Positions 192 through 15,363 of a DNA stretch of 15,556 nt are shown here, piece after piece. Within the stretch, counting starts at the first letter, position 1; each line of letters opens with the position of its first letter. The notes below the pieces were generated by a model. It did not search any database. It was not told the DNA's origin and saw only the letters and a program-made list of their open reading frames with translations. The DNA lies in NCBI GenBank assembly GCA_036149055.1, contig JAYZQJ010000175.1:1-15556 (forward strand). Reading direction: 5' to 3'. The DNA comes from Myxococcota bacterium. GTDB taxonomy: Bacteria; Myxococcota_A; Polyangia; Polyangiales; Sandaracinaceae. Position numbers and translations under genes: made by a program.

Positions 192-1442
192 TCACAGCGC
201 GTCGAGAGCGAGCAGGCCGTTGTAGACGAGGTGGGCCATCCCGCTGACCAGGGTGCTGCGGGACGCCGTGCGCAGGCTCGTCAGCACCAGCCCGGTCACC
301 GTGATCGCCACCAGGGCGCCCCACTGGCCGTAGACCTGCGGCACGTGCGCGAGCACGAAGAGGAGCCAGCCTCCGAGGAAGGCGAGGGCGCGGCTCTTCG
401 GCTCGATGAGGCCCTGGACGAAGCCGCGGAAGAAGATCTCCTCGGCCAGCGGCGCCACCACGGCGAGCGCGGCGAACGAGAGCATGCCGCTCGGCCAGCT
501 GACGAAGGTCTGCACCGCGCTCGCGCCGGTCGAGGGGACGAGCGCGGTGGCGAGCTGCGCGAGGACGACGAGCACGGCGCCGACGAGCAGCGCGGCCGGG
601 AACCAGGCCCACCAGCGACGCGGGCGCCGGAGGCCGAGGCCGTCGAGCCGCGCGGCGAAGCCCGGGCCCGGGACGAGGAGGAGCGCCACCGCGACCTCGA
701 AGGTGGCGAGGCCCACCCCGATGGCGAGGCCCGCCGCGGCCCCGCCCGGGAGGAAGCCGGTGACGAAGAAGCCCGCCAGCACGAGGACGAAGCCGCCCCC
801 GAGGCGCGCCCACCAGGGCAGGGTCCAGGAGGGCTCCCCGGCCCCCATCTCGTCGGCCCAGGGATCCTCGTCCTCCTCTTCGTCCGAGCGGAGCGCGAGG
901 GTGACGAGGAGTCCCAGCGAGCCGATCCAGGTCAGGAGCACGACCAGCACCTGCGGGAGGCCGAGCGGGCGGCGGCCGAGCACCCGGACGCGCAAAGGAA
1001 TGTCGGTCAAGGCGGTCGGCGGCTCGTCCCACGAGGCCTCGATGGCGTAGTCGTCGTCGACGCCGATGGTGCCGCGGCCGATCACCAGGCAGCCGCTGGA
1101 CGCGTCGCGGCGCACCTGACGCAGGATCTCCTCGCTCAGCACCGAGCGGGTCATGACCTCGCGGGCCGCGGGGCGCGAGACCGCCACCGCGAGGGCCCCG
1201 GCCCAGCGCTCCGGCTCCATCGGATCGGCCGCGCAGAGCTCGAAGACGACGAGTTGGTCGCGCCGGAGCCGGACCGACGTGAGGGTCGCGGCCGACGCGC
1301 CGGGCGCGGTGCGCTCCGCCAGCGTCACGTCCTCGTACCAGCGGACCTCCTCGTCCTCGAGGGCCGCGGTCGACACGAAGGCGACGACCACCCCCAGGAG
1401 CACCATCGCTCCCGTGACACCCGAGCCGAGCTTCCAGGCCAT
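192..1442 (-). CDS. CPBP (CAAX/Abi/Rce1-like) intramembrane glutamic endopeptidase with an N-terminal extracytoplasmic domain, 416 aa
   Basis: The C-terminus has the motifs EEIFFRG, FVLAH and HLVYN among many hydrophobic helices. ATG 1442 (MAWKLG...) is preferred over 1499 because a hydrophobic anchor follows it and TACTCT lies 7 nt upstream. Confidence 0.88.
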   Translation of the reverse strand: MAWKLGSGVTGAMVLLGVVVAFVSTAALEDEEVRWYEDVTLAERTAPGASAATLTSVRLRRDQLVVFELCAADPMEPERWAGALAVAVSRPAAREVMTRSVLSEEILRQVRRDASSGCLVIGRGTIGVDDDYAIEASWDEPPTALTDIPLRVRVLGRRPLGLPQVLVVLLTWIGSLGLLVTLALRSDEEEDEDPWADEMGAGEPSWTLPWWARLGGGFVLVLAGFFVTGFLPGGAAAGLAIGVGLATFEVAVALLLVPGPGFAARLDGLGLRRPRRWWAWFPAALLVGAVLVVLAQLATALVPSTGASAVQTFVSWPSGMLSFAALAVVAPLAEEIFFRGFVQGLIEPKSRALAFLGGWLLFVLAHVPQVYGQWGALVAITVTGLVLTSLRTASRSTLVSGMAHLVYNGLLALDAL

Positions 1443-1455
1443 CGCGCCGAGAGTA
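1443..1455 (-). promoter_or_regulatory. Putative -10 box (TACTCT) of a leaderless promoter for the CPBP gene
   Basis: The minus strand reads TACTCT-cggcgcg-ATG. No Shine-Dalgarno and no recognisable -35. Confidence 0.5.
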
Positions 1456-1509
1456 GCCCGAACCACCCGTCCGGCGGGGGACCCATCACGCGCCGCCATT
1501 CCAGGACGT

Positions 1510-3449: not shown

Positions 3450-4549
3450 GCGGAGAGCGCGCGCACCTGGTGCTGGCCGACGGCACCGTCTTCGAGGGAC
3501 ACGCGATCGGCGCCCCGGGCACCACCGTGGGCGAGGCGGTCTTCACGACCGGCATGACCGGCTACCAGGAGGTCCTCACCGACCCCTCGTACTGCGGCCA
3601 GATCGTGACGATGACCGCGCCGCAGATGGGCAACACCGGCACCACGTCGGAGGACGAGGAGGCCGAGAAGCCGCACCTCGCCGGCTTCGTGGTGCACGAG
3701 CTGTCGCCCATCGCGAGCAACTGGCGCTCGGATCGGACCCTCGACCGCTACCTGAAGGACCAGGGCGTGGTGGGCATCGCGGGGGTCGACACCCGGGCGC
3801 TCACCCGTCACATCCGCGACGCGGGCGCGCAGATGGCCGCCATCGGCACCGAGGACGTCGCCGCGCTCACCCGGAAGGCGAAGGACGCCCCGCCGATGAG
3901 CGGGCAGGACCTCACCGGCCGCGTCACCGCGGAGGCCCGCTACACCTGGGACGCGGGCTCGGGCGCCTGGCAGGTCGACGACGGAGAGGCCGGCCTGCAC
4001 GTGGTCGCCATCGACTACGGCATCAAGCAGAACATCTTGCGCTGCTTCGTCGACCTCGGCTGCAGGGTCACGGTGCTCCCCGCGAGCGCCAGCGCCGACG
4101 ACGTGCTCGCCGAGCAGCCGGACGGCGTCTTCCTCTCCAACGGCCCGGGCGACCCGGCCGCGGTGGCGAGCGGCATCGAGACCGCGAAGGCCCTGGTGGG
4201 CCAGAAGCCGGTGTTCGGCATCTGCCTCGGCCACCAGCTGCTCTCGCTCGCGCTCGGGGCGAAGACCTTCAAGCTCAAGTTCGGCCACCGCGGGCTCAAC
4301 CACCCGGTGAAGGACCTGACGACCGGCAAGATCGAGATCACGACGCAGAACCACGGGTTCGCGGTCGACCTCGACGCGCTGCCCCCGGGCGTCGAGGTCA
4401 CCCACGTGCACCTCAACGACGGCACCTGCCAGGGCGTCGAGCACCCCGCCTCGGGCAGCTTCGGCGTCCAGTACCACCCCGAAGCCAGCGCCGGCCCCCA
4501 CGACTCCCGCTACCTCTTCTCCCGCTTCATCGAGCGGATGAAGGCTTGA
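3446..4549 (+). CDS. carA: Carbamoyl-phosphate synthase small (glutaminase) subunit
   Basis: GEAVFTTGMTGYQEVLTDPSYCGQ, SNGPGDP, FGICLGHQ (catalytic Cys), QYHPE. ATGA overlap with pyrC. Confidence 0.97.
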   Translation: MSGERAHLVLADGTVFEGHAIGAPGTTVGEAVFTTGMTGYQEVLTDPSYCGQIVTMTAPQMGNTGTTSEDEEAEKPHLAGFVVHELSPIASNWRSDRTLDRYLKDQGVVGIAGVDTRALTRHIRDAGAQMAAIGTEDVAALTRKAKDAPPMSGQDLTGRVTAEARYTWDAGSGAWQVDDGEAGLHVVAIDYGIKQNILRCFVDLGCRVTVLPASASADDVLAEQPDGVFLSNGPGDPAAVASGIETAKALVGQKPVFGICLGHQLLSLALGAKTFKLKFGHRGLNHPVKDLTTGKIEITTQNHGFAVDLDALPPGVEVTHVHLNDGTCQGVEHPASGSFGVQYHPEASAGPHDSRYLFSRFIERMKA

Positions 4550-4550
4550 G

Positions 4551-5537
4551 CTGAGTCGGTCGAGGAGCGTCGTCGCGGCGCTGGTCGTGGCGATGGGCGT
4601 CGCGACGTCCCCTCCCGGAGCGCTCGCCGAGGACGTCACCGCGCGCCTCGAGTGGTCCGCGCCGGCCTCCTGTCCCGGCCCCGAGCGCCTCTCGCGCGCG
4701 GTCGCCGCCGCGATGTCACGCGAGGCCTTCGCCCCGGAGGGTGAGCTGCTGGTCCGCGGGGCGCTGCGCCCGGTCGACGAGGAGCCGGTCCACTGGCGCG
4801 CGGAGCTGGAGCTGGTGTCGGGGGAGGGCGTCTCCATCGGGCGCCGGGTCCTCGACCTGGAGGCGGCGGACTGTGAGGCCTCCCTCGGCCCGCTGGCGCT
4901 GGTCCTGTCGTTGATGCTCGACGTCTCCCGCGAGGAGGTCCGGATCCGGGTCCGGGCGGCGACCGAGGAGCCTTCGCCCGCGCCTCTGCCTACGCCGCCG
5001 CTGCCCGCTCCGGCGTCGGTCGAGGACGCGCCCCGTCTCACCGCGGCGCTCGGGGGCGGCGTCGCCATCGAGCAGGTGCCGGGCGCCGCGGCCACCGTGG
5101 ACCTGCGCGCCGGCGTGCGGTGGCGGTCCTGGACGCTCGAGCTCTGGGCGGCCGCGCTGAGCGAAGGGACGGCGAGCCTCGGGGACGCGTCGGTGCACGC
5201 GTGGGCGGGGCTCGCTGGGGTGTCGACGTGCGGCCTGCCGCTGTCCGGCGAGTGGGACATCGGCGTCTGCGCCGAGGTGGCGGCCGGCTTCACGAGCGCG
5301 CGCGCGGCGGGGCTCAGCCAGGTCCGCGGCGTGGTTCGTCCGCAGGCGGCGCTCGGTCTCACCCTGCGGGTCCGGCGACAGCTCTGGGGGCCTCTCGGGG
5401 TCCGGGTGGAGCTGGGCGGGCGGGCTCTGGCGGTGCGTGACCGGCTGACCATTCGACCCGCCGACGAGACGGTGGTCGCGTTCGAGCCGTGGCCGGTCGC
5501 GCCGACCGGAGGCGTCTGGCTCGATCTCGAACTTTGA
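4551..5537 (+). CDS. Exported hypothetical protein: Cys-paired N-domain, Pro linker, predicted 8-stranded outer-membrane beta-barrel
   Basis: The frame is open from 4542. The first canonical start is GTG 4587, but a complete signal peptide (SRSRSVVAALVVAMGVATSPPGALA|ED) needs CTG 4551, so the start is uncertain. The C-terminal half has about 8 amphipathic Gly/aromatic-rich strands ending GGVWLDLEL. Confidence 0.7.
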   Translation: MSRSRSVVAALVVAMGVATSPPGALAEDVTARLEWSAPASCPGPERLSRAVAAAMSREAFAPEGELLVRGALRPVDEEPVHWRAELELVSGEGVSIGRRVLDLEAADCEASLGPLALVLSLMLDVSREEVRIRVRAATEEPSPAPLPTPPLPAPASVEDAPRLTAALGGGVAIEQVPGAAATVDLRAGVRWRSWTLELWAAALSEGTASLGDASVHAWAGLAGVSTCGLPLSGEWDIGVCAEVAAGFTSARAAGLSQVRGVVRPQAALGLTLRVRRQLWGPLGVRVELGGRALAVRDRLTIRPADETVVAFEPWPVAPTGGVWLDLEL

Positions 5538-5538
5538 G

Positions 5539-5565
5539 TGGGAAATCGGCGAGGCTCCGGCGAAG
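5539..5565 (+). promoter_or_regulatory. Putative ECF-sigma autoregulatory promoter, copy 1
   Basis: TGGGAAA-tcggcgaggctccggc-GAAG, starting 35 nt before ATG 5574. A near copy lies at 6867-6893. Confidence 0.6.
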
Positions 5566-5573
5566 TGGAGGAG

Positions 5574-6092
5574 ATGCTGCTCGCACGCACCGAGGCGCGG
5601 CTGGACGTCGCGGCGGCCGTCCGTGAGCACGCGCCCTACGTGCTGCGGTCGCTCCGGCATCTGGGCGTCCGGACGGCCGACCTGGAGGACGTGGCGCAGG
5701 AGGTCTTCGTCGTCCTGCACCGCCGACGCGCCGACTGGGCCGAAGCGCGTGGCTCCGTGCGGGCGTGGCTCTACGGGATTTGCGTGCGCAAGGCGCAGCA
5801 TCACCGGCGCACCCTCGCGAGGCGGCCGGAGCTCGCGGTCGAGGTGGAGCGCGGCGCCTCCGACGCGACCGAGGCGCGCCTCGACGCGCGGCTGCTCGCC
5901 GGCTGGGTCCTCGATCAGCTCGACGACGACAAGCGCGCGGTCTTCGTGCTCTTCGAGATCGAGGGGCTGCGCATGAAGGAGGTCGCCGAGATCCTCGGGT
6001 GCCCGCTCAAGACGGGGTACTCGCGGCTCGAGGCGGCGCGGAGGACGGTCGCGGCGGCTCACGCCACGGCGCGCGCGAGGGGGTGGCTGTGA
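5574..6092 (+). CDS. ECF (group 4 sigma70) RNA polymerase sigma factor, 172 aa
   Basis: Region 2: DLEDVAQEVFVVL...WLYGICVRKA. Region 4 HTH: RAVFVLFEIEGLRMKEVAEILGCPLKTGYSRL. Alternative start GTG 5538. Confidence 0.93.
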   Translation: MLLARTEARLDVAAAVREHAPYVLRSLRHLGVRTADLEDVAQEVFVVLHRRRADWAEARGSVRAWLYGICVRKAQHHRRTLARRPELAVEVERGASDATEARLDARLLAGWVLDQLDDDKRAVFVLFEIEGLRMKEVAEILGCPLKTGYSRLEAARRTVAAAHATARARGWL

Positions 6093-6853
6093 CCGACGAC
6101 CCGAAGCGGTGGGCGGAAGACGCGCCGAACGACGACCTGGCGGCCCTGATGCGCGGCATGGAGGCCGACCTGCCGACCGAGGCCGAGGTGAGCTCCCTGG
6201 TCGACGCGGTGGAGCGAGCGGTGGTGGCCGGCGGCGGCGGCGGCGGCACGGGGGGTGCGCCCGCCGGCGGTCTGGCGCGGGGCGCGCTCGTCGGCGCGGG
6301 GCTGGGCGCCGCCGGGATCGCGGGGCTGGCGGCCTGGCTGCTGCTCGCGCCTCCGCACGAGCCTCCGAGCGCGCCTCCGTCGACCGCGCCGACGGCGCCC
6401 ACCGAGGCCCCGCCCGCTCCGCCGACCCGGGCTGCTCCGATGGAGGCTGCTCCGATGGAGGCTGCTCCGATCGAAGAGGGGCCGCGCGAGCCGGCCGACC
6501 CTCCCGCTCGGGCGGCCCCGGCGCCGAGCCCGAGCGAGCGCGCGCCCGCCCAGGCTGCGCGGCGCGCCCGACGGTCGAGCCCATCGATCGAGGAGCCTCC
6601 GGACGAGCTGTCGCTGCTGAGCGCGGCCCGCGCGGCCCTCGACGACGATCCGGGGCGGGCCCTCTCGCTCGCCGCCGACCACGCGCGCTTCCACCCGCGC
6701 GGCGCGCTGACCGAGGAGCGCGAGGTCATCGCGATCGACGCGCTCGCCGCCCTGGGGCGGACGCAGGCGGCGCGGGCTCGTGCCGACGCGTTCGCCCGAC
6801 GCTGGCCGCGATCGGCGCATCGTGCGCACCTCCGGACGCTTCTCGAGCGATGA
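6089..6853 (+). CDS. Putative single-pass anti-sigma factor with Pro-rich linker and C-terminal TPR-like helices, 254 aa
   Basis: GTGA overlap with the sigma stop. Short acidic N-domain, Gly run, TM segment (ALVGAGLGAAGIAGLAAWLLLA), Pro/Ala linker, then a helical domain (LSAARAAL...EEREVIAIDALAALGR...FARRWPRS). Confidence 0.78.
   Translation: MTDDPKRWAEDAPNDDLAALMRGMEADLPTEAEVSSLVDAVERAVVAGGGGGGTGGAPAGGLARGALVGAGLGAAGIAGLAAWLLLAPPHEPPSAPPSTAPTAPTEAPPAPPTRAAPMEAAPMEAAPIEEGPREPADPPARAAPAPSPSERAPAQAARRARRSSPSIEEPPDELSLLSAARAALDDDPGRALSLAADHARFHPRGALTEEREVIAIDALAALGRTQAARARADAFARRWPRSAHRAHLRTLLER
6431..6475 (+). repeat. 15-bp in-frame tandem repeat x3 (AAPME-AAPME-AAPIE)
   Basis: gctgctccgatggag twice, then gctgctccgatcgaa. 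Confidence 0.9.
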
Positions 6854-6866
6854 ATCGAGCGTCGAA

Positions 6867-6893
6867 TGGGAAAACCGCGACGCCGCGGGAAAG
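6867..6893 (+). promoter_or_regulatory. Putative ECF-sigma promoter, copy 2
   Basis: TGGGAAA-accgcgacgccgcggg-AAAG, starting 34 nt before ATG 6901. Confidence 0.6.
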
Positions 6894-6900
6894 GGGGGGC

Positions 6901-8769
6901 ATGAACACGCTTCGCCTCCTCCTCTCCGCGGCCCTCGCGCTCACCTTGGGCTGCTCGACCGACGTCGACCTCGGCGCCAACGACGACGGCGGGCGCGGCC
7001 CGAGGGTCGGCGGCGACGAGTGCGGCAACGGCTTCGACGACGACGTCGACGGCCGGACCGACGAGGGATGTCCGTGCGCGCCGGGAGAGACCCAGGCCTG
7101 CGGCGCGATGCGCGGGCTCGGCGCGTGCGCGGAGGGTGGCGCGCAGCGCTGCGAGTCGGCGGCCGAGTGGGGCGACTGGGGCGAGGCGAGCTGTGAGGGC
7201 TCGGTCGTGCCCGGGATCGAGGCGTGCGACGGACAGGACCGAGACTGCGACGGCACGGTCGACGAGGGCTGCCCCTGCAGCGCGGATGACCGGCGGTCCT
7301 GCGGCGGTGACCCGGTGGGCGCCTGTCGGGCCGGCGAGCAGGTCTGCGTGGCCGGTGAGTGGTCGGCGTGCGAGGGCGCGGTGGGACCGACGGCGGAGCG
7401 CTGTGGCAACGACGTCGACGACGACTGCGACGGCGTCGTCGACGATCCGCTCCTCTGCATGTGCGAGCCCGTCCCGGAGATCTGCGACAACGGCGTCGAC
7501 GACGACTGCGACGGGAACGTCGACGAGCCCGGCTGCCGCGGCGGCGGTGACGCGGGGACCGACGGAGGGAGCGACGCCGGGGTGCCGGGCTGCGTCGGGA
7601 CGTGCACGCCCTCGGGAGCCTGGCGCACCCTCGGCCCGACGGTGACGGACACCACGCACACCGGGGACGCGGCGCTCGCCGTCTGCGCCGTGCCCGGCGG
7701 GGGCGTCGCGGCGGTGTACCGCGACGGAAGCGACTACCGCCTCGTCAGGCTCGACGCGGGGGGCGCCGTCGCCGTCGACCGCCGGCTGGGAGTGTCGCTC
7801 CCCGGTGACTCGCTGTCGGATGGCCTCCTCGCCGAAGGCGCGGTCTGCGGGGCCGGGCGCTTCGTGATCGCGCACCGCACCGAGGCGCGCGCACTCGAGG
7901 CGCGGGGGTTCGATTACGACGGCGGCATCGTCGCCGGCCCGACGCTCGTGGCCGAGGACGGCGTCGGCTTCGCGGGGATCGCCGCGCTGGGGTCCGAGAT
8001 CTACGTCGGCTTCAGCCGCGTCGATCCCGGGCCGCGCGAGGTGCATCTCTACTCGCGCCGCCTCGACGCCTCCACGCTCGCGCCGCTCGGGCCGGCGGTG
8101 GACGTCGCGCCCGGGGTCCAGGTCCAGTCGCGCCGCGTCGAGGTCGTGACCCGCGCGACCGACGTCGTGGTGACCGCGATCCCGCGAGGGGACCTGAACC
8201 ACCAGGTCATCGCGCGGGTCCGCGGAGACGCGCCCCTGGGCGCCCACGTGGCCGTCCTGCCGAGACAGCCGGGCTGGCCTGCGGCGACGGCGGGCACGCA
8301 CCGCCGTCTGGTCGCCCTGACGACCGACGAGATGGTCCTGTGCTGGGAGCACCAACCGCAGCCGTGCTGCCCGGATGGACAGCGCACCTGGTGCCTGGCC
8401 CTCGACCCGGTGGGTGCGCCGGTGGGGGCGCACGTCGAGTTGACGGCGCCCGGGGCGAGCGACGGCTTCGACTTCGGCATGACCACCGACGGCTGCTCCG
8501 TCTTCGTCGTCACGCACTGCCGCGAGGTGGCCTCCAGCTCGTGCAGCTCGACGGGGGGATGGATCCACGCCGGAGATCCGGCGACGGGGATCTGGAGCCG
8601 CACCCCCTTGCCGGCGAGGATGACCCGGAACGAGGCGCTCCTGGGGTTCCTGCCGCTCTCGGCGCAGGTCGTGCGGACGAACGATGGGCTCTGGCACTTC
8701 GGCCTCGGCCGGAGCAACGGCCGAGGCACCATGCAGCTGGTCGACGTGCGCGCGTCCTGCGCGCCCTGA
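6901..8769 (+). CDS. Cys/Asp-rich lipoprotein with MopE-like putative metal-binding repeats and a beta-rich C-terminal domain, 622 aa
   Basis: Signal peptide II MNTLRLLLSAALALTLG|C. Four repeats of type E-x(0-1)-C-(D/G)...DDDCDGxxD(E/D), interleaved with Cys-rich modules. The DAG linker is typical of myxobacterial proteins. Confidence 0.85.
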   Translation: MNTLRLLLSAALALTLGCSTDVDLGANDDGGRGPRVGGDECGNGFDDDVDGRTDEGCPCAPGETQACGAMRGLGACAEGGAQRCESAAEWGDWGEASCEGSVVPGIEACDGQDRDCDGTVDEGCPCSADDRRSCGGDPVGACRAGEQVCVAGEWSACEGAVGPTAERCGNDVDDDCDGVVDDPLLCMCEPVPEICDNGVDDDCDGNVDEPGCRGGGDAGTDGGSDAGVPGCVGTCTPSGAWRTLGPTVTDTTHTGDAALAVCAVPGGGVAAVYRDGSDYRLVRLDAGGAVAVDRRLGVSLPGDSLSDGLLAEGAVCGAGRFVIAHRTEARALEARGFDYDGGIVAGPTLVAEDGVGFAGIAALGSEIYVGFSRVDPGPREVHLYSRRLDASTLAPLGPAVDVAPGVQVQSRRVEVVTRATDVVVTAIPRGDLNHQVIARVRGDAPLGAHVAVLPRQPGWPAATAGTHRRLVALTTDEMVLCWEHQPQPCCPDGQRTWCLALDPVGAPVGAHVELTAPGASDGFDFGMTTDGCSVFVVTHCREVASSSCSSTGGWIHAGDPATGIWSRTPLPARMTRNEALLGFLPLSAQVVRTNDGLWHFGLGRSNGRGTMQLVDVRASCAP

Positions 8770-8774
8770 GTGCC

Positions 8775-9431
8775 TCAGACGTCGAGCTCGGTGAGGGGAG
8801 TGGCGACGGTGAGGTCGGCGCCGGTCTTCTCCTGGACCTCCTTGGCGCTGACGCCGGGGGCGACCTCGCGGAGGACGAGGCCGTCGTCGGTCACGTCGAT
8901 GAGGGCGAGGTCGGTGATGATCCGGTCGACCACGCCGCGGCCGGTGAGGGGGAGCTTGCACTCCTCGAGGATCTTCGGGGAGCCGTCCTTGCTCGTGTGG
9001 GTCGTGATCACGACCACGCGCTTGGCGCCCACGACGAGGTCCATCGCGCCGCCCATGCCCTTGATCATCTTGCCGGGGATCATCCAGTTGGCGATGTCGC
9101 CCTTCTGGGAGACCTCCATCGTGCCGAGGATGGCGAGGTCGATGTGGCCGCCGCGGATCATCGAGAAGCTGGTGGAGCTGTCGAAGTAGCTCGCGCCCGG
9201 CATCGCGGTCACGGTCTGCTTGCCCGCGTTGATGAGGTCGGCGTCCTCCTCGCCCTCGTAGGGGAAGGGGCCCACGCCGAGCAGGCCGTTCTCGCTCTGG
9301 AGGTAGACCTCCATCCCCTCGGGGATGTAGTTGGCCACGAGCGTCGGCATGCCGATGCCGAGGTTGACGTAGTAGCCGTCGCGGAGCTCGCGCGCGGCCA
9401 CCTTGGCGATCTGGTCGCGGTTCAGCGGCAT
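8775..9431 (-). CDS. scoB: 3-oxoacid CoA-transferase subunit B
   Basis: [15 protein letters not shown] (catalytic Glu), [32 protein letters not shown] upstream. Confidence 0.95.
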
Positions 9432-10184: not shown

Positions 10185-11888
<1,704 letters not shown>

Positions 11889-12022
11889 CGAATGATTCCT
11901 CCGAAGACGCCTGAGCGTTCAGTATGCAGGGGTCGGCCGTCAAGTGCGGCCGCGCGGCGAGAGCGGCCTCGGTGGGGTCGGCAAGGCGGCGAAAAGACGC
12001 TAGAAAACGGGTCCCGCTGGTC

Positions 12023-13192
12023 ATGAGCTGGCTGAAGCGCATCTTCGACGGCAGACATCGCCGGGCCCTCGCGGCCGAGGGCGCGGGGCAGTGGCGTCGC
12101 GCGGCGGCGCTCTGGGCGGAGGCCGAGGAGCCCATCCGCGCCGCCGAGGCGCTCCTCCACCTCGCCGACCGCTCGAAGGATCTCGAGGAGCGCCTCGAGG
12201 CCTGGCACGACGCGCTGCGCTGGCTGCCGGAGGAGGACGAGGAGCGCCGCGAGGAGGTCGAGCGGCGCGTCGCCCTCGCCATCCTCGCCGACGCCAAGGC
12301 CCGCGGCGCCGCCAGCGGCGAGGAGAAGCGTCGGCTGCTCGAGGCGGCCGCCCAGCTCGAGCTGCTCGACCGGGCGCGCGAGGCCGCCGAGTGCTTCGAG
12401 CTGCTCGGCCGGCACGAGGATCAGGCCCGATGCCTCGAGCTGGCCGGCGAGGTGGAGAAGCTCGAGGCGCTGCTCGAGCGGACGGCCCGCGCCGAGGCCT
12501 CCGAGAGCCGCCTACGCCGGCTGATGAGCGACTACGAGATGGCGCTGCGCTACGGGGCCCGGCTCGAGGCGCGCGACGCCCTGCGCGAGGCGACGCGGCT
12601 GGCGCCCGAGGAGCGCTCGATCTCGGAGCTGCTCCGCCGGCTCGAGGCGCGCATGCCGCCGCCGTCCCGGGTGCGCCTGGAGGTCGGGGGCAAGCGGGTG
12701 GCGTTCGTGGGGCGCCTGCCGGCGGTGCTCGGGCGCGGCGAGGTCGACGTGCCGATCCGGGGCACCAGCGTCTCGCGGGAGCACGCCCAGGTCGCGGTCG
12801 AGGACGGAGCGCTCGTGATCCGCGATCTCGACAGCCGGAACGGCACCCTGATCCGCGGCCTGCCGATCTCGGGATCGATCGCGCTGACCGGCGAGACCGA
12901 GATCGGGCTCGGTGACGACGTGTCGCTCGCGATCCGCCCGCTGGGGCCGGAGAGCCTGCTCATCGAGGTGCTCAGCGGCTTCGATCGCGGCGACCGCATC
13001 GTGCTCGGGGCCGGGCCGCTCGCGTGGGCGGGGCTCGAGGCGGACGTGCGCTTCGAGGAGGGCTGGGCGGTGCTCGCCGCGCGGAGCGGAGTGGAGCTCA
13101 CCCTGGAGGGGCAGACCTGCGCGCTCCCGGTCCACCTCCTGGTCGAGGACCGGCTCGTGGTCGGCGGCCGGCCGGTGGAGGTGCTGGCGTGA
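12023..13192 (+). CDS. TPR-like helical and FHA domain protein, 389 aa
   Basis: The FHA signature LGRG...SVSREHA...DLDSRNGT is intact. The N-terminal half is an alpha-solenoid. Start ATG 12023 (MSWLKRIF). Confidence 0.88.
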   Translation: MSWLKRIFDGRHRRALAAEGAGQWRRAAALWAEAEEPIRAAEALLHLADRSKDLEERLEAWHDALRWLPEEDEERREEVERRVALAILADAKARGAASGEEKRRLLEAAAQLELLDRAREAAECFELLGRHEDQARCLELAGEVEKLEALLERTARAEASESRLRRLMSDYEMALRYGARLEARDALREATRLAPEERSISELLRRLEARMPPPSRVRLEVGGKRVAFVGRLPAVLGRGEVDVPIRGTSVSREHAQVAVEDGALVIRDLDSRNGTLIRGLPISGSIALTGETEIGLGDDVSLAIRPLGPESLLIEVLSGFDRGDRIVLGAGPLAWAGLEADVRFEEGWAVLAARSGVELTLEGQTCALPVHLLVEDRLVVGGRPVEVLA

Positions 13193-14454
13193 GCTTCTGG
13201 CGGCGCCTGTTCGGTCGGGGCGAGGAGGCGCCGGAGCCGGAGGAGGCGCCGGAGCCGGAGCCCGAGGAGGAGCCGGAGCTCCGGGCGCCCGATGACCCGG
13301 AGCTGATCCTGGAGCGGCTCGGCGACGACCCGGACGCGGAGCTCGACGACGCCCACGCCCTCGCCCAGCTCGAGCGCCTGCGGCAGCAGGGCCGGGAGGC
13401 GCGCGCCATCGACCTCGCGCGCCGCGTCCTCGCGCACCACCCGGGCGCGCTCGCGGTGCACCAGCGGGTCGCGGAGCTGCTCGCCTCCCGGGGCGACGAC
13501 CAGGGGGCGGCGCGCCTGCTGGAGCCGTTCCTGGACGCCGCCGACGCGCCGCTGGAGCTCTGGATGCTGGGCGCCGAGATCGCCGAGCGCCGCGGGGACA
13601 CGGTGCGCGCGCTCGCCCTCTACGAGCGGGTGGTGGCCCGTGACCTCGACTACCCCCGGGCGCGCGCCCGGGTGCGGCGCCTCCGCGAGGGCGACCGGAA
13701 GAAGGTCGACGTCGGCGCGACCCTGATGGCCGACGGCGCCCTGACCCGCGGCCGCTACCGCGTGGAGCGCGAGCTCGGCCGGGGTGGGGCGGGCACGGTC
13801 TTCCTGGCCGACGATCTGTCGCTCGGTCGGAAGGTCGCGCTCAAGGTCTATCACCGCCGGGGCCGGGCCGAGCGCACCCGGCTGCTGGTCGAGGCCCGCA
13901 CGCCGGCGCGGCTGGAGCACCCCGGCATCGTGCGGGTGTTCGACATCGACGAGACGCTCGCGGCCATCGCGATGGAGCGGGTGCTCGGCGGCTCGGTGCG
14001 ACACGAGATCGACAAGGGCGGTCTGCCCCCGGCGCGGGTGGTGCGCTGGCTGGTCACCTGCGCCGAGGCGCTCGCCCACGTGCACGCGGCCGACGTGGTG
14101 CACCGTGACCTCAAGCCCTCCAACATGCTGCTCCGCGCGGACGACCGGGTGGTGCTCACCGACTTCGGCGTCGCGTGTGATCCCGGCTACGTCGCGCCGG
14201 GCGCGCGGGCCGAGGGCACCCTGAAGTACATGTCCCCCGAGCAGAAGGCGGGCGCGCCGGCGAGCCTGGCGATGGACGTGCACGCCTTCGGGGTGGCCAC
14301 GCGCGAGATCCTGGAGCACGTGTCGGCGGACGGGCCGGCGGCCCTGCACGAGCTGGTCGGGGCGTGTCTCCGGGCCGATCCGCGGCAGCGCCCGGACGCC
14401 CGCTGGTTGGTGGAGACGCTGACCCCGCTTGCCGCCCCCCTGGCCCCGGGGTAA
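13189..14454 (+). CDS. Hanks-type Ser/Thr protein kinase with N-terminal TPR-like region, 421 aa
   Basis: GTGA overlap with the FHA gene. GRGGAGTV, VALK, alphaC Glu, HRDLKPSN, DFG, GTLKYMSPE and DP..RP are present. No TM helix. Confidence 0.92.
   Translation: MSFWRRLFGRGEEAPEPEEAPEPEPEEEPELRAPDDPELILERLGDDPDAELDDAHALAQLERLRQQGREARAIDLARRVLAHHPGALAVHQRVAELLASRGDDQGAARLLEPFLDAADAPLELWMLGAEIAERRGDTVRALALYERVVARDLDYPRARARVRRLREGDRKKVDVGATLMADGALTRGRYRVERELGRGGAGTVFLADDLSLGRKVALKVYHRRGRAERTRLLVEARTPARLEHPGIVRVFDIDETLAAIAMERVLGGSVRHEIDKGGLPPARVVRWLVTCAEALAHVHAADVVHRDLKPSNMLLRADDRVVLTDFGVACDPGYVAPGARAEGTLKYMSPEQKAGAPASLAMDVHAFGVATREILEHVSADGPAALHELVGACLRADPRQRPDARWLVETLTPLAAPLAPG
13222..13257 (+). 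repeat. 18-bp in-frame tandem repeat x2 (EEAPEP) in the acidic kinase linker
   Basis: gaggaggcgccggagccg twice, followed by degenerate EPEEEPE. Confidence 0.85.
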
Positions 14455-14463: not shown

Positions 14464-15363
14464 GTGGCGAAACGAGGCAAGCTCCCCAAGCCGAAGGACG
14501 CTGGCGAGGCTTTCGAGAACATCGAGCAGCCGACGCTGAAGTGGCGGACCATCGCGATCATCGTCGTGGCGTTCGTGGTGCTCTGGGTCACCGCGTTCAT
14601 GATCCAGGGCTACGACGAGGACGGCGTCTTCGGCTGGGTCGTCATCGGCGTGGTCGGCGCCCTGACCCTCGCGGCCATCGGCTTCGGCATCTACGTGTGG
14701 CGGCTCACGAAGAAGTCGCGCGGCATCGTCGACATCCTCGCGCAGGCGACCGACGAGGAGGGCCGCAAGCGGGCCCTCGCGCAGCTCGAGCAGGCCGACA
14801 GCAAGGACGCGCTCGCCGCGCTCGCCCGCGCCCAGCTGGTGGCTCGCGAGCAGCCGGCCGAGGCGATGAAGATCCTCGAGGCCATCGACCTCGGCAAGGC
14901 GCCGGCCGTCGTGCAGGACGACGTCCGCGCGAACCTCGGCTTCCTGTACCTGATGAACGGCCGCGCCAAGGACGCCCGCAAGCTCGCCGACGACCTCCGG
15001 CTCGACCGGCAGCCCAACGCCAAGGCGAAGGCGATGTACGCCGCGGTCGCGGCCGAGGCGTTCGCGCGCACCGGCAAGGCCGACGAGGCGGCGAAGCTCA
15101 TCGAGACCTACCCGGCCGACGACCCCGAGTACGGCGAGGTCGGCTCGATGCTGCTCCGCGCGCAGGTCTACACGCACCTCGCCAACAAGAAGCGCGGCCT
15201 CGCCCAGCAGTCGATGCGCGCCCTCGCGAAGGCCGACCCGAACATGCTCGCGCCCTTCCTCGGCAAGGGCATGCGCCCGGAGCTCCAGAAGATGGCCCAG
15301 AAGGCCCTCAAGTCGGTCGGCCTCGCCCCCAAGCAGAAGATGCAGGTCCAGCGCCGGTTCTGA
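14464..15363 (+). CDS. Membrane protein with two N-terminal TM helices and a TPR-like helical domain, 299 aa
   Basis: Two hydrophobic segments (TIAIIVVAFVVLWVTAFMI; GWVVIGVVGALTLAAIGFGIYVW) followed by TPR-like helices (VRANLGFLYLMNGRAKDARKL). Strong codon bias. Confidence 0.85.
   Translation: MAKRGKLPKPKDAGEAFENIEQPTLKWRTIAIIVVAFVVLWVTAFMIQGYDEDGVFGWVVIGVVGALTLAAIGFGIYVWRLTKKSRGIVDILAQATDEEGRKRALAQLEQADSKDALAALARAQLVAREQPAEAMKILEAIDLGKAPAVVQDDVRANLGFLYLMNGRAKDARKLADDLRLDRQPNAKAKAMYAAVAAEAFARTGKADEAAKLIETYPADDPEYGEVGSMLLRAQVYTHLANKKRGLAQQSMRALAKADPNMLAPFLGKGMRPELQKMAQKALKSVGLAPKQKMQVQRRF

Follow-up and report, generated by a model that had tools for sequence, protein, structure and literature searches.

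A candidate TonB-independent signalling cassette of barrel protein, ECF sigma factor, TPR-bearing anti-sigma and lipoprotein in a myxobacterial genome

Described outer-membrane-to-sigma systems and the cassette

Two wirings from the outer membrane to sigma factors of the extracytoplasmic function (ECF) class are known, the TonB-dependent transducers of cell-surface signalling and the single-chain Dma proteins. Here we describe a four-gene cassette on contig JAYZQJ010000175.1 of a Sandaracinaceae genome (Myxococcota; GCA_036149055.1, 9.9 Mb), the whole 15,556-bp contig being the window analysed. The genes encode an exported barrel protein (P0001), an ECF sigma factor (P0002), a putative anti-sigma (P0003) and a lipoprotein (P0004). 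We propose, with a probability of roughly 0.55 for the whole chain, that they form a TonB-independent trans-envelope switch leading from a cue at the cell surface to release of the sigma factor and on to the lipoprotein. If so, the cassette would do the job with two proteins, assembled from parts other than those of the known wirings.

In the cell-surface signalling systems FecA/FecR/FecI and FoxA/FoxR/FoxI, an outer-membrane protein with a periplasmic N-terminal domain is combined with a single-pass anti-sigma and an ECF sigma (PMC11637429; this and the other sources on described systems are each cited for part of their text). The cassette has the same arrangement, including an ECF sigma with an adjacent single-pass membrane regulator. 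A resting-state contact through which the FoxA signalling domain protects FoxR has been shown for Fox (PMC11637429), and a protective resting contact of this kind would be its counterpart in the cassette. The parts themselves differ. Instead of a TonB-dependent receptor the cassette has an 8-stranded barrel protein of 328 amino acids, its anti-sigma carries tetratricopeptide repeats (TPRs) rather than a FecR domain, and the N-domain of the barrel protein matches CsgG, LptE and TolB-N. Whereas cell-surface signalling sigmas induce the receptor gene, the barrel gene lacks the sigma's promoter motif. A previous interpretation made from the DNA alone, hereafter the sequence-only reading, had supposed that no TonB-dependent receptor takes part, and Pfam found none in the window or in the 47 of 256 long neighbouring open reading frame (ORF) ends scanned. 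FecR was found neither in P0003 nor in the N- and C-terminal parts of 92 homologues, the homologue linkers lying outside the scan, and STN was not among the fold matches listed for the whole of P0001, the N-domain not having been searched on its own, which leaves room for such a domain.

The closest structural parallel, which the sequence-only reading did not mention, is Dma of Bacteroides, a different phylum. Dma likewise has a cytoplasmic N-terminus, one transmembrane (TM) helix, a long disordered periplasmic linker and an 8-stranded outer-membrane barrel, together with an adjacent ECF sigma and lipoproteins in its regulon (PMC10927553). Dma is one polypeptide (PMC10927553), with a sigma of the ECF21 type sequestered by its N-terminus. 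In the cassette the barrel is a separate protein that brings an N-domain, and TPRs form the end of the anti-sigma, so that the barrel and the disordered linker are split over two proteins. Barrel and anti-sigma are separate genes in all 83 complete canonical trios surveyed below, a count made with no length-extended search for fused forms. In further contrast to Dma, Pfam OMP_b-brl_2 was absent from the barrel family and NigD from 35 cargo proteins. Since it has no TonB-dependent receptor and no FecR domain and is not one polypeptide, the cassette belongs to neither class, yet it likely works like both. Our literature searches, whose coverage excluded most subscription papers, found no description of it.

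Among myxobacterial systems, DdvS/DdvA of Myxococcus xanthus is likewise an ECF sigma and a single-pass anti-sigma whose periplasmic part carries TPRs, and DdvA undergoes RseP-dependent cleavage once its periplasmic part is lost (PMC11506125). DdvA has a zinc anti-sigma domain and a TPR-CHAT region of about 900 residues (PMC11506125), whereas the cassette anti-sigma has neither zinc motif nor CHAT, about 85 TPR residues and an outer-membrane partner. In the classification of Casas-Pastor et al. (PMC7826278), ECF267 is a myxobacterial group with FecR-like TPR anti-sigmas and no TonB-dependent receptor, and ECF210, another such group, is listed for Sorangium, Sandaracinus and Chondromyces without a described regulator. 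The group descriptions, as far as that part of the source goes, mention no barrel partner (PMC7826278). We compared the cassette with both groups by description only; ECF267 anti-sigmas combine FecR with TPRs, and the window's has no FecR domain. The two putative docking domains have their source folds in PelB/PelC, BamD, LptE, CsgG and TolB-N (PMC12141448), which differ in being export or assembly parts without a sigma factor.

The barrel protein and its linkage to ECF sigma/anti-sigma pairs

The AlphaFold model of P0001, built on an alignment of 114 homologues (mean predicted local distance difference test score, pLDDT, 93.8; predicted template-modelling score 0.61), consists of the N-domain, a Pro-rich linker and eight long strands (pLDDT >90). 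The strands are confidently modelled as a closed outer-membrane barrel of the OmpA class, matching NspA (Z 17.4), OprF (16.8), OmpA (16.2) and OmpW (16.0) with root-mean-square deviations of 1.9-4.3, and further CarO (13.4) and AlkL (10.3). An even strand number would place the N-domain on the periplasmic side. The N-domain matches CsgG, an LptE-like protein, PqiC, TolB-N and PelC (Z 7.8-8.2 over 93-117 residues), middling scores for a shared fold that shows no function. Four cysteines of the mature protein (C15, C82, C201 and C214), two in the N-domain and two in the barrel, are each present in 146-147 of 147 representatives, and the last aligned residue of the barrel is F in 96 and L in 29 of them. 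The sequence-only reading had seen a two-Cys N-domain followed by about eight strands and had supposed a closed barrel of OmpA/OmpW size with its own periplasmic domain. The model agrees on each count and adds the likeness of the N-domain to CsgG, LptE, PqiC and TolB-N.

The protein has no Pfam match. Pfam gave no meaningful match for 114 members (a low-complexity match in 5), a PDB sequence search of the family returned nothing, the N-domain fell by features in no named Atlas cluster, and the nearest Atlas clusters of P0001 are unnamed and mostly from Myxococcota, its 30 matches all lacking a common family. A profile search nevertheless recovered 29,358 representatives (clustered at 50% identity) at E<=0.001 and 12,157 at E<=1e-30; the word-indexed protein search, with 1 and 11 relatives, badly underestimates the family. 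Barrel matches were present in 25 of 31 related genomes, with up to 24 in one genome, in 11/31 and 14/17 genomes around two other centres and, at lower sensitivity, in 13 of 121 genomes across the phylum. The family barrels are divergent, at 16-40% identity to P0001. One clade (L001:3534-4838, L127, L128, L130 and L133) has an extra N-terminal beta-rich domain with a CxxxC motif before the N-domain.

The sequence-only reading implied that the barrel is linked to ECF sigma/anti-sigma pairs, and the gene neighbourhoods bear this out. An ECF sigma lies within about 5 kb of the barrel gene in 113 of 124 loci from 35 genomes, compared with an estimated 4% or so of random 10-kb stretches, given about 44 sigma-like matches per 9.9 Mb in the source genome. 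The order is barrel, sigma, anti-sigma in 83 loci and barrel, sigma, contig end in 12; two have barrel and sigma without a detected anti-sigma, four run sigma, anti-sigma, barrel, two are divergent and ten have both partners within 5 kb in another order. The others comprise two loci with an anti-sigma only, four with no partner and five with no partner at a contig end. In a second survey a sigma was found in the fetched stretch for 31 of 37 further barrel loci, giving 144 of 161 when pooled. These loci are kin rather than independent samples; the first survey left out L178 (no barrel match) and the second L210 (900 bp), L213 and L219 (no barrel match). The source genome itself holds five such trios. 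The sequence-only reading is thereby supported in part: of the three outcomes it named as refuting, a first protein that is no membrane barrel and homologues unlinked to ECF/anti-sigma pairs were both looked for, and neither was found.

All four ORFs of the cassette lie on the same strand between carA (carbamoyl-phosphate synthase small chain, stop at 4549) and a convergent CoA-transferase gene pair identified by Pfam (scoB in the sequence-only reading); the gene bordering the cassette ends at 8775. The four genes are real and form one unit, as had been read from the DNA. One further genome of the genus was searched. There carA and the CoA-transferase gene, at the matching positions, are separated by 39 bp with no cassette between them, and a similar four-gene unit lies elsewhere (L069), at local identities of 36% (barrel), 43% (anti-sigma) and 48% (lipoprotein), an overall range of 36-48%. 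The empty site and the set elsewhere together indicate that block 4550-8774 was gained or lost whole. Absence from this site in a close relative is what a chance gathering of unrelated accessory genes might also produce. The pooled linkage refutes such a reading; gain or loss of the genes as a block and the similar unit elsewhere in that relative also speak against it, and we give it next to no credence.

Some loci depart from the common layout. L234 has three barrel genes clustered with one sigma/anti-sigma pair, and in L095, the window's closest relative on the tree, an unrelated membrane-protein ORF (5850-7040; His-box motifs, desaturase-like by eye) separates barrel and sigma. At L005 (C81:44119-44600 and downstream in the source genome) a closely related sigma has no barrel gene, and the TM protein encoded after it carries a TPR region that is much longer.

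Table 1. Coordinates of the cassette features in the window
Feature	Position	Strand	Basis
P0001, exported protein of two domains: after the signal peptide an N-domain in the periplasm, a linker rich in Pro and a predicted outer-membrane barrel of 8 strands	4551..5537	+	AlphaFold model and fold matches; start uncertain
N-domain, beta-alpha-beta-beta-beta-alpha, two conserved Cys; CsgG/LptE/PqiC/TolB-N/PelC-like fold	4641..4964	+	Model; Z 7.8-8.2
Arg99 (mature R73), candidate TPR-contact residue	4845..4847	+	R in 147/147 representatives; changes together with TPR Glu
Beta-barrel, predicted to have 8 strands, of the OmpA/NspA/OprF/OmpW class; neighbouring strands carry a conserved pair of Cys	5034..5531	+	Model; Z 16.0-17.4
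Putative promoter used by the sigma (GTGGGAAAT ... GAAG), a variant form of the family's motif; begins 36 nt ahead of ATG 5574	5538..5573	+	Inferred
ECF sigma factor, P0002 from Met13	5574..6092	+	Pfam
P0003, putative anti-sigma: short helical part in the cytoplasm, spacer of Gly, single TM helix (~6287-6343), linker rich in Pro, two TPRs	6089..6853	+	Role from position and topology
Five-helix BamD/CpoB-like TPR domain; Glu210 (codon 6716-6718) is the covarying residue	6605..6847	+	Model, profile and fold matches
Locus-specific promoter-like motif, second copy; begins 35 nt ahead of ATG 6901	6866..6900	+	Pattern search
Lipoprotein P0004: lipobox Cys 6952 followed by the tag-like STDVDLG, then Cys/Asp repeats of PF11617 and a beta-rich C-terminal region that fits no known family	6901..8769	+	Pfam, sequence

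The putative anti-sigma and its proposed contact with the barrel protein

P0003 overlaps the sigma stop by 4 nucleotides (GTGA at 6089), has a single hydrophobic helix and carries a linker of 87 residues that is 30% Pro, so that the translational coupling, single TM segment and long Pro linker of the sequence-only reading are all present. In its 92 homologues (median length 260 amino acids) a short helical stretch at the N-terminus is joined by a Gly/Ala spacer to a single hydrophobic helix (mean hydropathy >1.5 in 90/92), after which come a low-complexity linker and a conserved domain of about 85 residues, and 76 of them overlap the sigma stop by the same 4 nucleotides. The C-terminal domain, described before as TPR-like, models as five helices (pLDDT 96.8) whose tandem helix pairs match BamD TPR1-2. 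It resembles BamD and CpoB/YbgF by profile (E 1.6e-6 to BamD), its top fold matches are BamD and YbgF (template-modelling scores 0.73-0.80, none at E<=0.001), and Pfam YfiO is found in 25 of the 92 C-terminal parts. On P0003 itself Pfam gave no match and no CHAT, and a PDB sequence search with the N-terminus gave nothing. Its role as the anti-sigma is inferred from position and topology.

Two observations concern variant proteins. The source genome encodes a stand-alone TM-linker-TPR protein (L006:3549-4166 on C41) with no cytoplasmic domain and no adjacent sigma or barrel, which is possibly a decoy or competitor. In L003, L067, L151 and L078 the anti-sigma has only about three TPR helices, and in three of the four the second Cys of the partner N-domain lies elsewhere; we set this coincidence aside, the three cases being one clade.

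The sequence-only reading placed the TPR domain against the N-domain of the barrel, and for this proposal the evidence is residue covariation. Among 79 barrel/anti-sigma pairs (13 of the 92 anti-sigmas, having no full-length barrel row, were left out), 75 have R99 and E210, three have both residues changed, one has a gap and none has a single change. This is the strongest of 240 conserved column pairs, with a nominal p of 1.3e-5 against 2.4e-3 for the next. A further 23 pairings, in which one anti-sigma is counted twice, gave 20 R/E, one R/D, one with both changed and one gap. Joint change of the two residues suggests a direct contact of N-domain and TPR through R99 and E210. There is a precedent in PelC, whose fold resembles the N-domain (Z 7.8) and which binds the TPRs of PelB electrostatically (PMC12141448). 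We consider a physical link between barrel protein and anti-sigma quite probable.

The resemblance of the barrel to OmpW, CarO and AlkL would also fit a small-molecule channel that makes no contact with the anti-sigma, the sigma/anti-sigma pair sensing a periplasmic molecule by itself. Such a channel leaves the conserved N-domain, the invariant R99 and its joint change with E210 unexplained, and we regard it as improbable. It is also possible that the link exists as a mechanical tether sensing outer-membrane damage or membrane spacing, the barrel being a ligand-free anchor. Dma has been proposed to sense outer-membrane stimuli or perturbations through its 8-stranded barrel (PMC10927553), and the linkers of the 92 protein 3 homologues (58-234 residues, median 92) never fall below 58 residues, which would suit a tether. 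Their fourfold variation in length would not, and the count of up to 24 matches in one genome, the divergence of the barrels and the locus-specific promoter variants fit many separate inputs better; we hold a tether to be distinctly unlikely.

Promoter-like sites, the probable lipoprotein output and genome context

P0002 has Pfam Sigma70_r2 and r4_2 domains above cut-off. Its start is most likely ATG 5574, because a promoter-like -35 box begins at the alternative GTG 5538. Ahead of the sigma gene the family has a two-box motif of the ECF promoter type, approximately RTGACGGAT-N-CA(c/a/t)(t/g)C. It reaches at least 10 bits in 38 of 56 held-out sigma loci, whereas random stretches do so in 12 of 224 cases and the regions upstream of barrel genes in 7 of 120; at new loci it was found in 15/27 versus 2/32. 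The start codon follows the second box by 11-15 nucleotides in 54 of 84 sites, a spacing that suggests leaderless transcripts. Promoter variants differ from locus to locus. The window's own variant, RTGGGAAA-N15-17-RAAG, occurs twice in the 9.9-Mb genome, both times in the cassette (RTGGGAAA alone occurs 29 times); as the pattern was defined from these two sites, its weight lies on the repeat at family spacing. Matching sigma and lipoprotein sites were seen at few other loci (L084, L156 and L160), and the family matrix gave eight genome-wide matches >15 bits, none convincing. The motif precedes the sigma gene and not the barrel gene, and in the window a variant recurs before the lipoprotein gene. 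We infer that transcription of the sigma, anti-sigma and lipoprotein genes is driven by the sigma, and that production of the barrel does not depend on it, which is what a sensor would call for.

The lipoprotein gene has two in-frame ATGs, at 6850 (overlapping the anti-sigma stop) and 6901. The lipobox and the PF11617 match agree with the earlier description of a lipoprotein with Asp/Cys repeats; a PDB sequence search with the C-terminal region gave nothing. By pattern, 32 of 92 loci have a lipoprotein after the anti-sigma (four more by eye), as do 11 of 26 new loci. Cargo is variable, as had been supposed, the bodies of 35 such lipoproteins being PF11617 (7), FG-GAP (5), RCC1 (2), IgGFc (1) or of no family (20). 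The sequence-only reading left open whether the lipoprotein is sensor or output. The promoter-like variant recurring before P0004 favours output, the likely role, over sensor.

Within 10 residues of the lipidated Cys, 20 of 32 cargo lipoproteins have a hydrophobic-Gly tag, compared with 86 of 1032 lipoprotein-like ORFs of the source genome, a noisy background for a motif chosen after viewing the data. The tag recurred in 5 of 11 lipoproteins at new loci and 3 of 8 beside barrel genes, in its strict form in 2/11 and 1/8 of these held-out proteins, and looks real if loose. Its presence on unrelated bodies raises another reading, in which the barrel is a display or assembly helper recognising the tag and the TPRs report that cargo or helper is in place, the circuit being a feedback monitor rather than a receptor for outside cues. 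The fold of the N-domain, which is that of the export and assembly helpers CsgG, LptE and PelC, and the resemblance of the TPRs to BamD speak for it. Against it, the barrel is linked far more often to the sigma pair than to a lipoprotein after the anti-sigma, it has no promoter that would co-induce it with cargo, the strict tag is rare in held-out lipoproteins, and an 8-stranded barrel is too narrow for passage of a folded protein. We consider the helper reading unlikely.

The switch that we favour would operate as follows. Synthesis of the barrel protein would not depend on the sigma and would here probably rely on transcription reading through from pyrC-carA; the N-domain of the protein would dock on the TPRs through R99-E210, the two linkers jointly spanning the periplasm. 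Docking would protect the anti-sigma as the FoxA signalling domain does FoxR (PMC11637429), and the docked inner-membrane protein would hold the ECF sigma inactive until a surface cue breaks or strains the link. Loss of docking would then lead to periplasmic cleavage followed by RseP, as for DdvA (PMC11506125), freeing the sigma to transcribe itself, the anti-sigma and the lipoprotein output. Two RseP-family genes score over cut-off in the source genome.

Several points weigh against this switch. Away from contig ends, four of the 124 barrel loci and two of the 37 lack both a sigma and an anti-sigma in their vicinity, and a lipoprotein trails the anti-sigma in a minority of loci. No known anti-sigma domain is matched by the cytoplasmic portion of protein 3, with the zinc motif (HxxxCxxC) in 0/92. 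Export of the window's copy of P0001 hinges on a rare CTG start (4551), with which alone the signal peptide is complete; the database record begins at residue 15. The family matrix gives low scores to the two promoter-like sites of the window, the pattern they share was drawn up after the fact, and ribosome-binding sites would look much like their 3' halves, while just 3 of 36 lipoprotein upstream regions reach at least 10 bits. Finally, the covariation rests on four divergent, long-branch loci; for the first three exceptions the tree does not compel more than one origin (two changes needed, one forced), and the mutual-information peak (z 6.3, compared with <=5.9 in shuffles) comes from 79 pairs and is inflated by conservation.

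A wider proposal, which we regard as doubtful, is that the family represents a third trans-envelope class. Thousands of barrels would each dock via a CsgG/LptE-like domain on a cognate TPR tip, the lipoprotein would return by its tag to the barrel as co-receptor or feedback ligand, and related barrels would be the missing receptors of FecR-TPR (ECF267-like) systems. The family, with more than 12,000 strong representatives, has no Pfam model, and if the switch is real it would offer a candidate regulator for ECF groups left unexplained by the 2021 classification, in which ECF210 lacks a regulator and ECF267 a receptor. Its many paralogues with their own promoter variants could then be a source of orthogonal surface-to-gene switches. 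The R99/E210 pair, the two promoter-like sites and the lipoprotein tag are directly testable handles.

Seven sister loci in the source genome (C128, C260, C152, C29, C79, C178 and C149; L192-L198) have an ECF sigma beside an exported barrel-like protein without the conserved Cys, related to the barrel family over its last 111 columns (probability 97.4%). The anti-sigma is FecR+TPR in four of them and zf-HC2+TPR in one, none was seen adjacent in the other two, and most are near lipoproteins. These loci fit the description of ECF267 and suggest the barrel-like protein as a candidate receptor for that group.

Near-identical DNA occurs in seawater and cold-seep metagenomes from several studies. 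Depth over the cassette was below that of its flanks in X2 (21-29 vs 64-83) and X3 (10-12 vs 41-62) and even in X6, and contigs of X20 depart from the window sequence at 4550 and 8772, a hint only that some strains lack the cassette; no contig from the sequencing runs joins 4550 directly to 8772. Two RNA-labelled runs did not show transcription of the cassette, a scan of 4300-9000 found no sigma-70 promoter or terminator, and within the cassette Pfam named nothing but the ECF sigma and, in the lipoprotein, the PF11617 repeats.

Elsewhere in the window are an Rce1-like membrane protease (192-1499, minus strand), a PilB-like ATPase (10185-11888, minus), an FHA-domain protein (11924-13192, plus), a Ser/Thr kinase-like ORF recognised by eye (~13190-14454, plus) and a TM-TPR protein (14464-15363, plus). 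All lie outside the cassette and are ordinary myxobacterial neighbours. A 106-amino-acid ORF with no Pfam match (1711-2031, plus) lies upstream of a dihydroorotase-like gene in a stretch of lower GC content.

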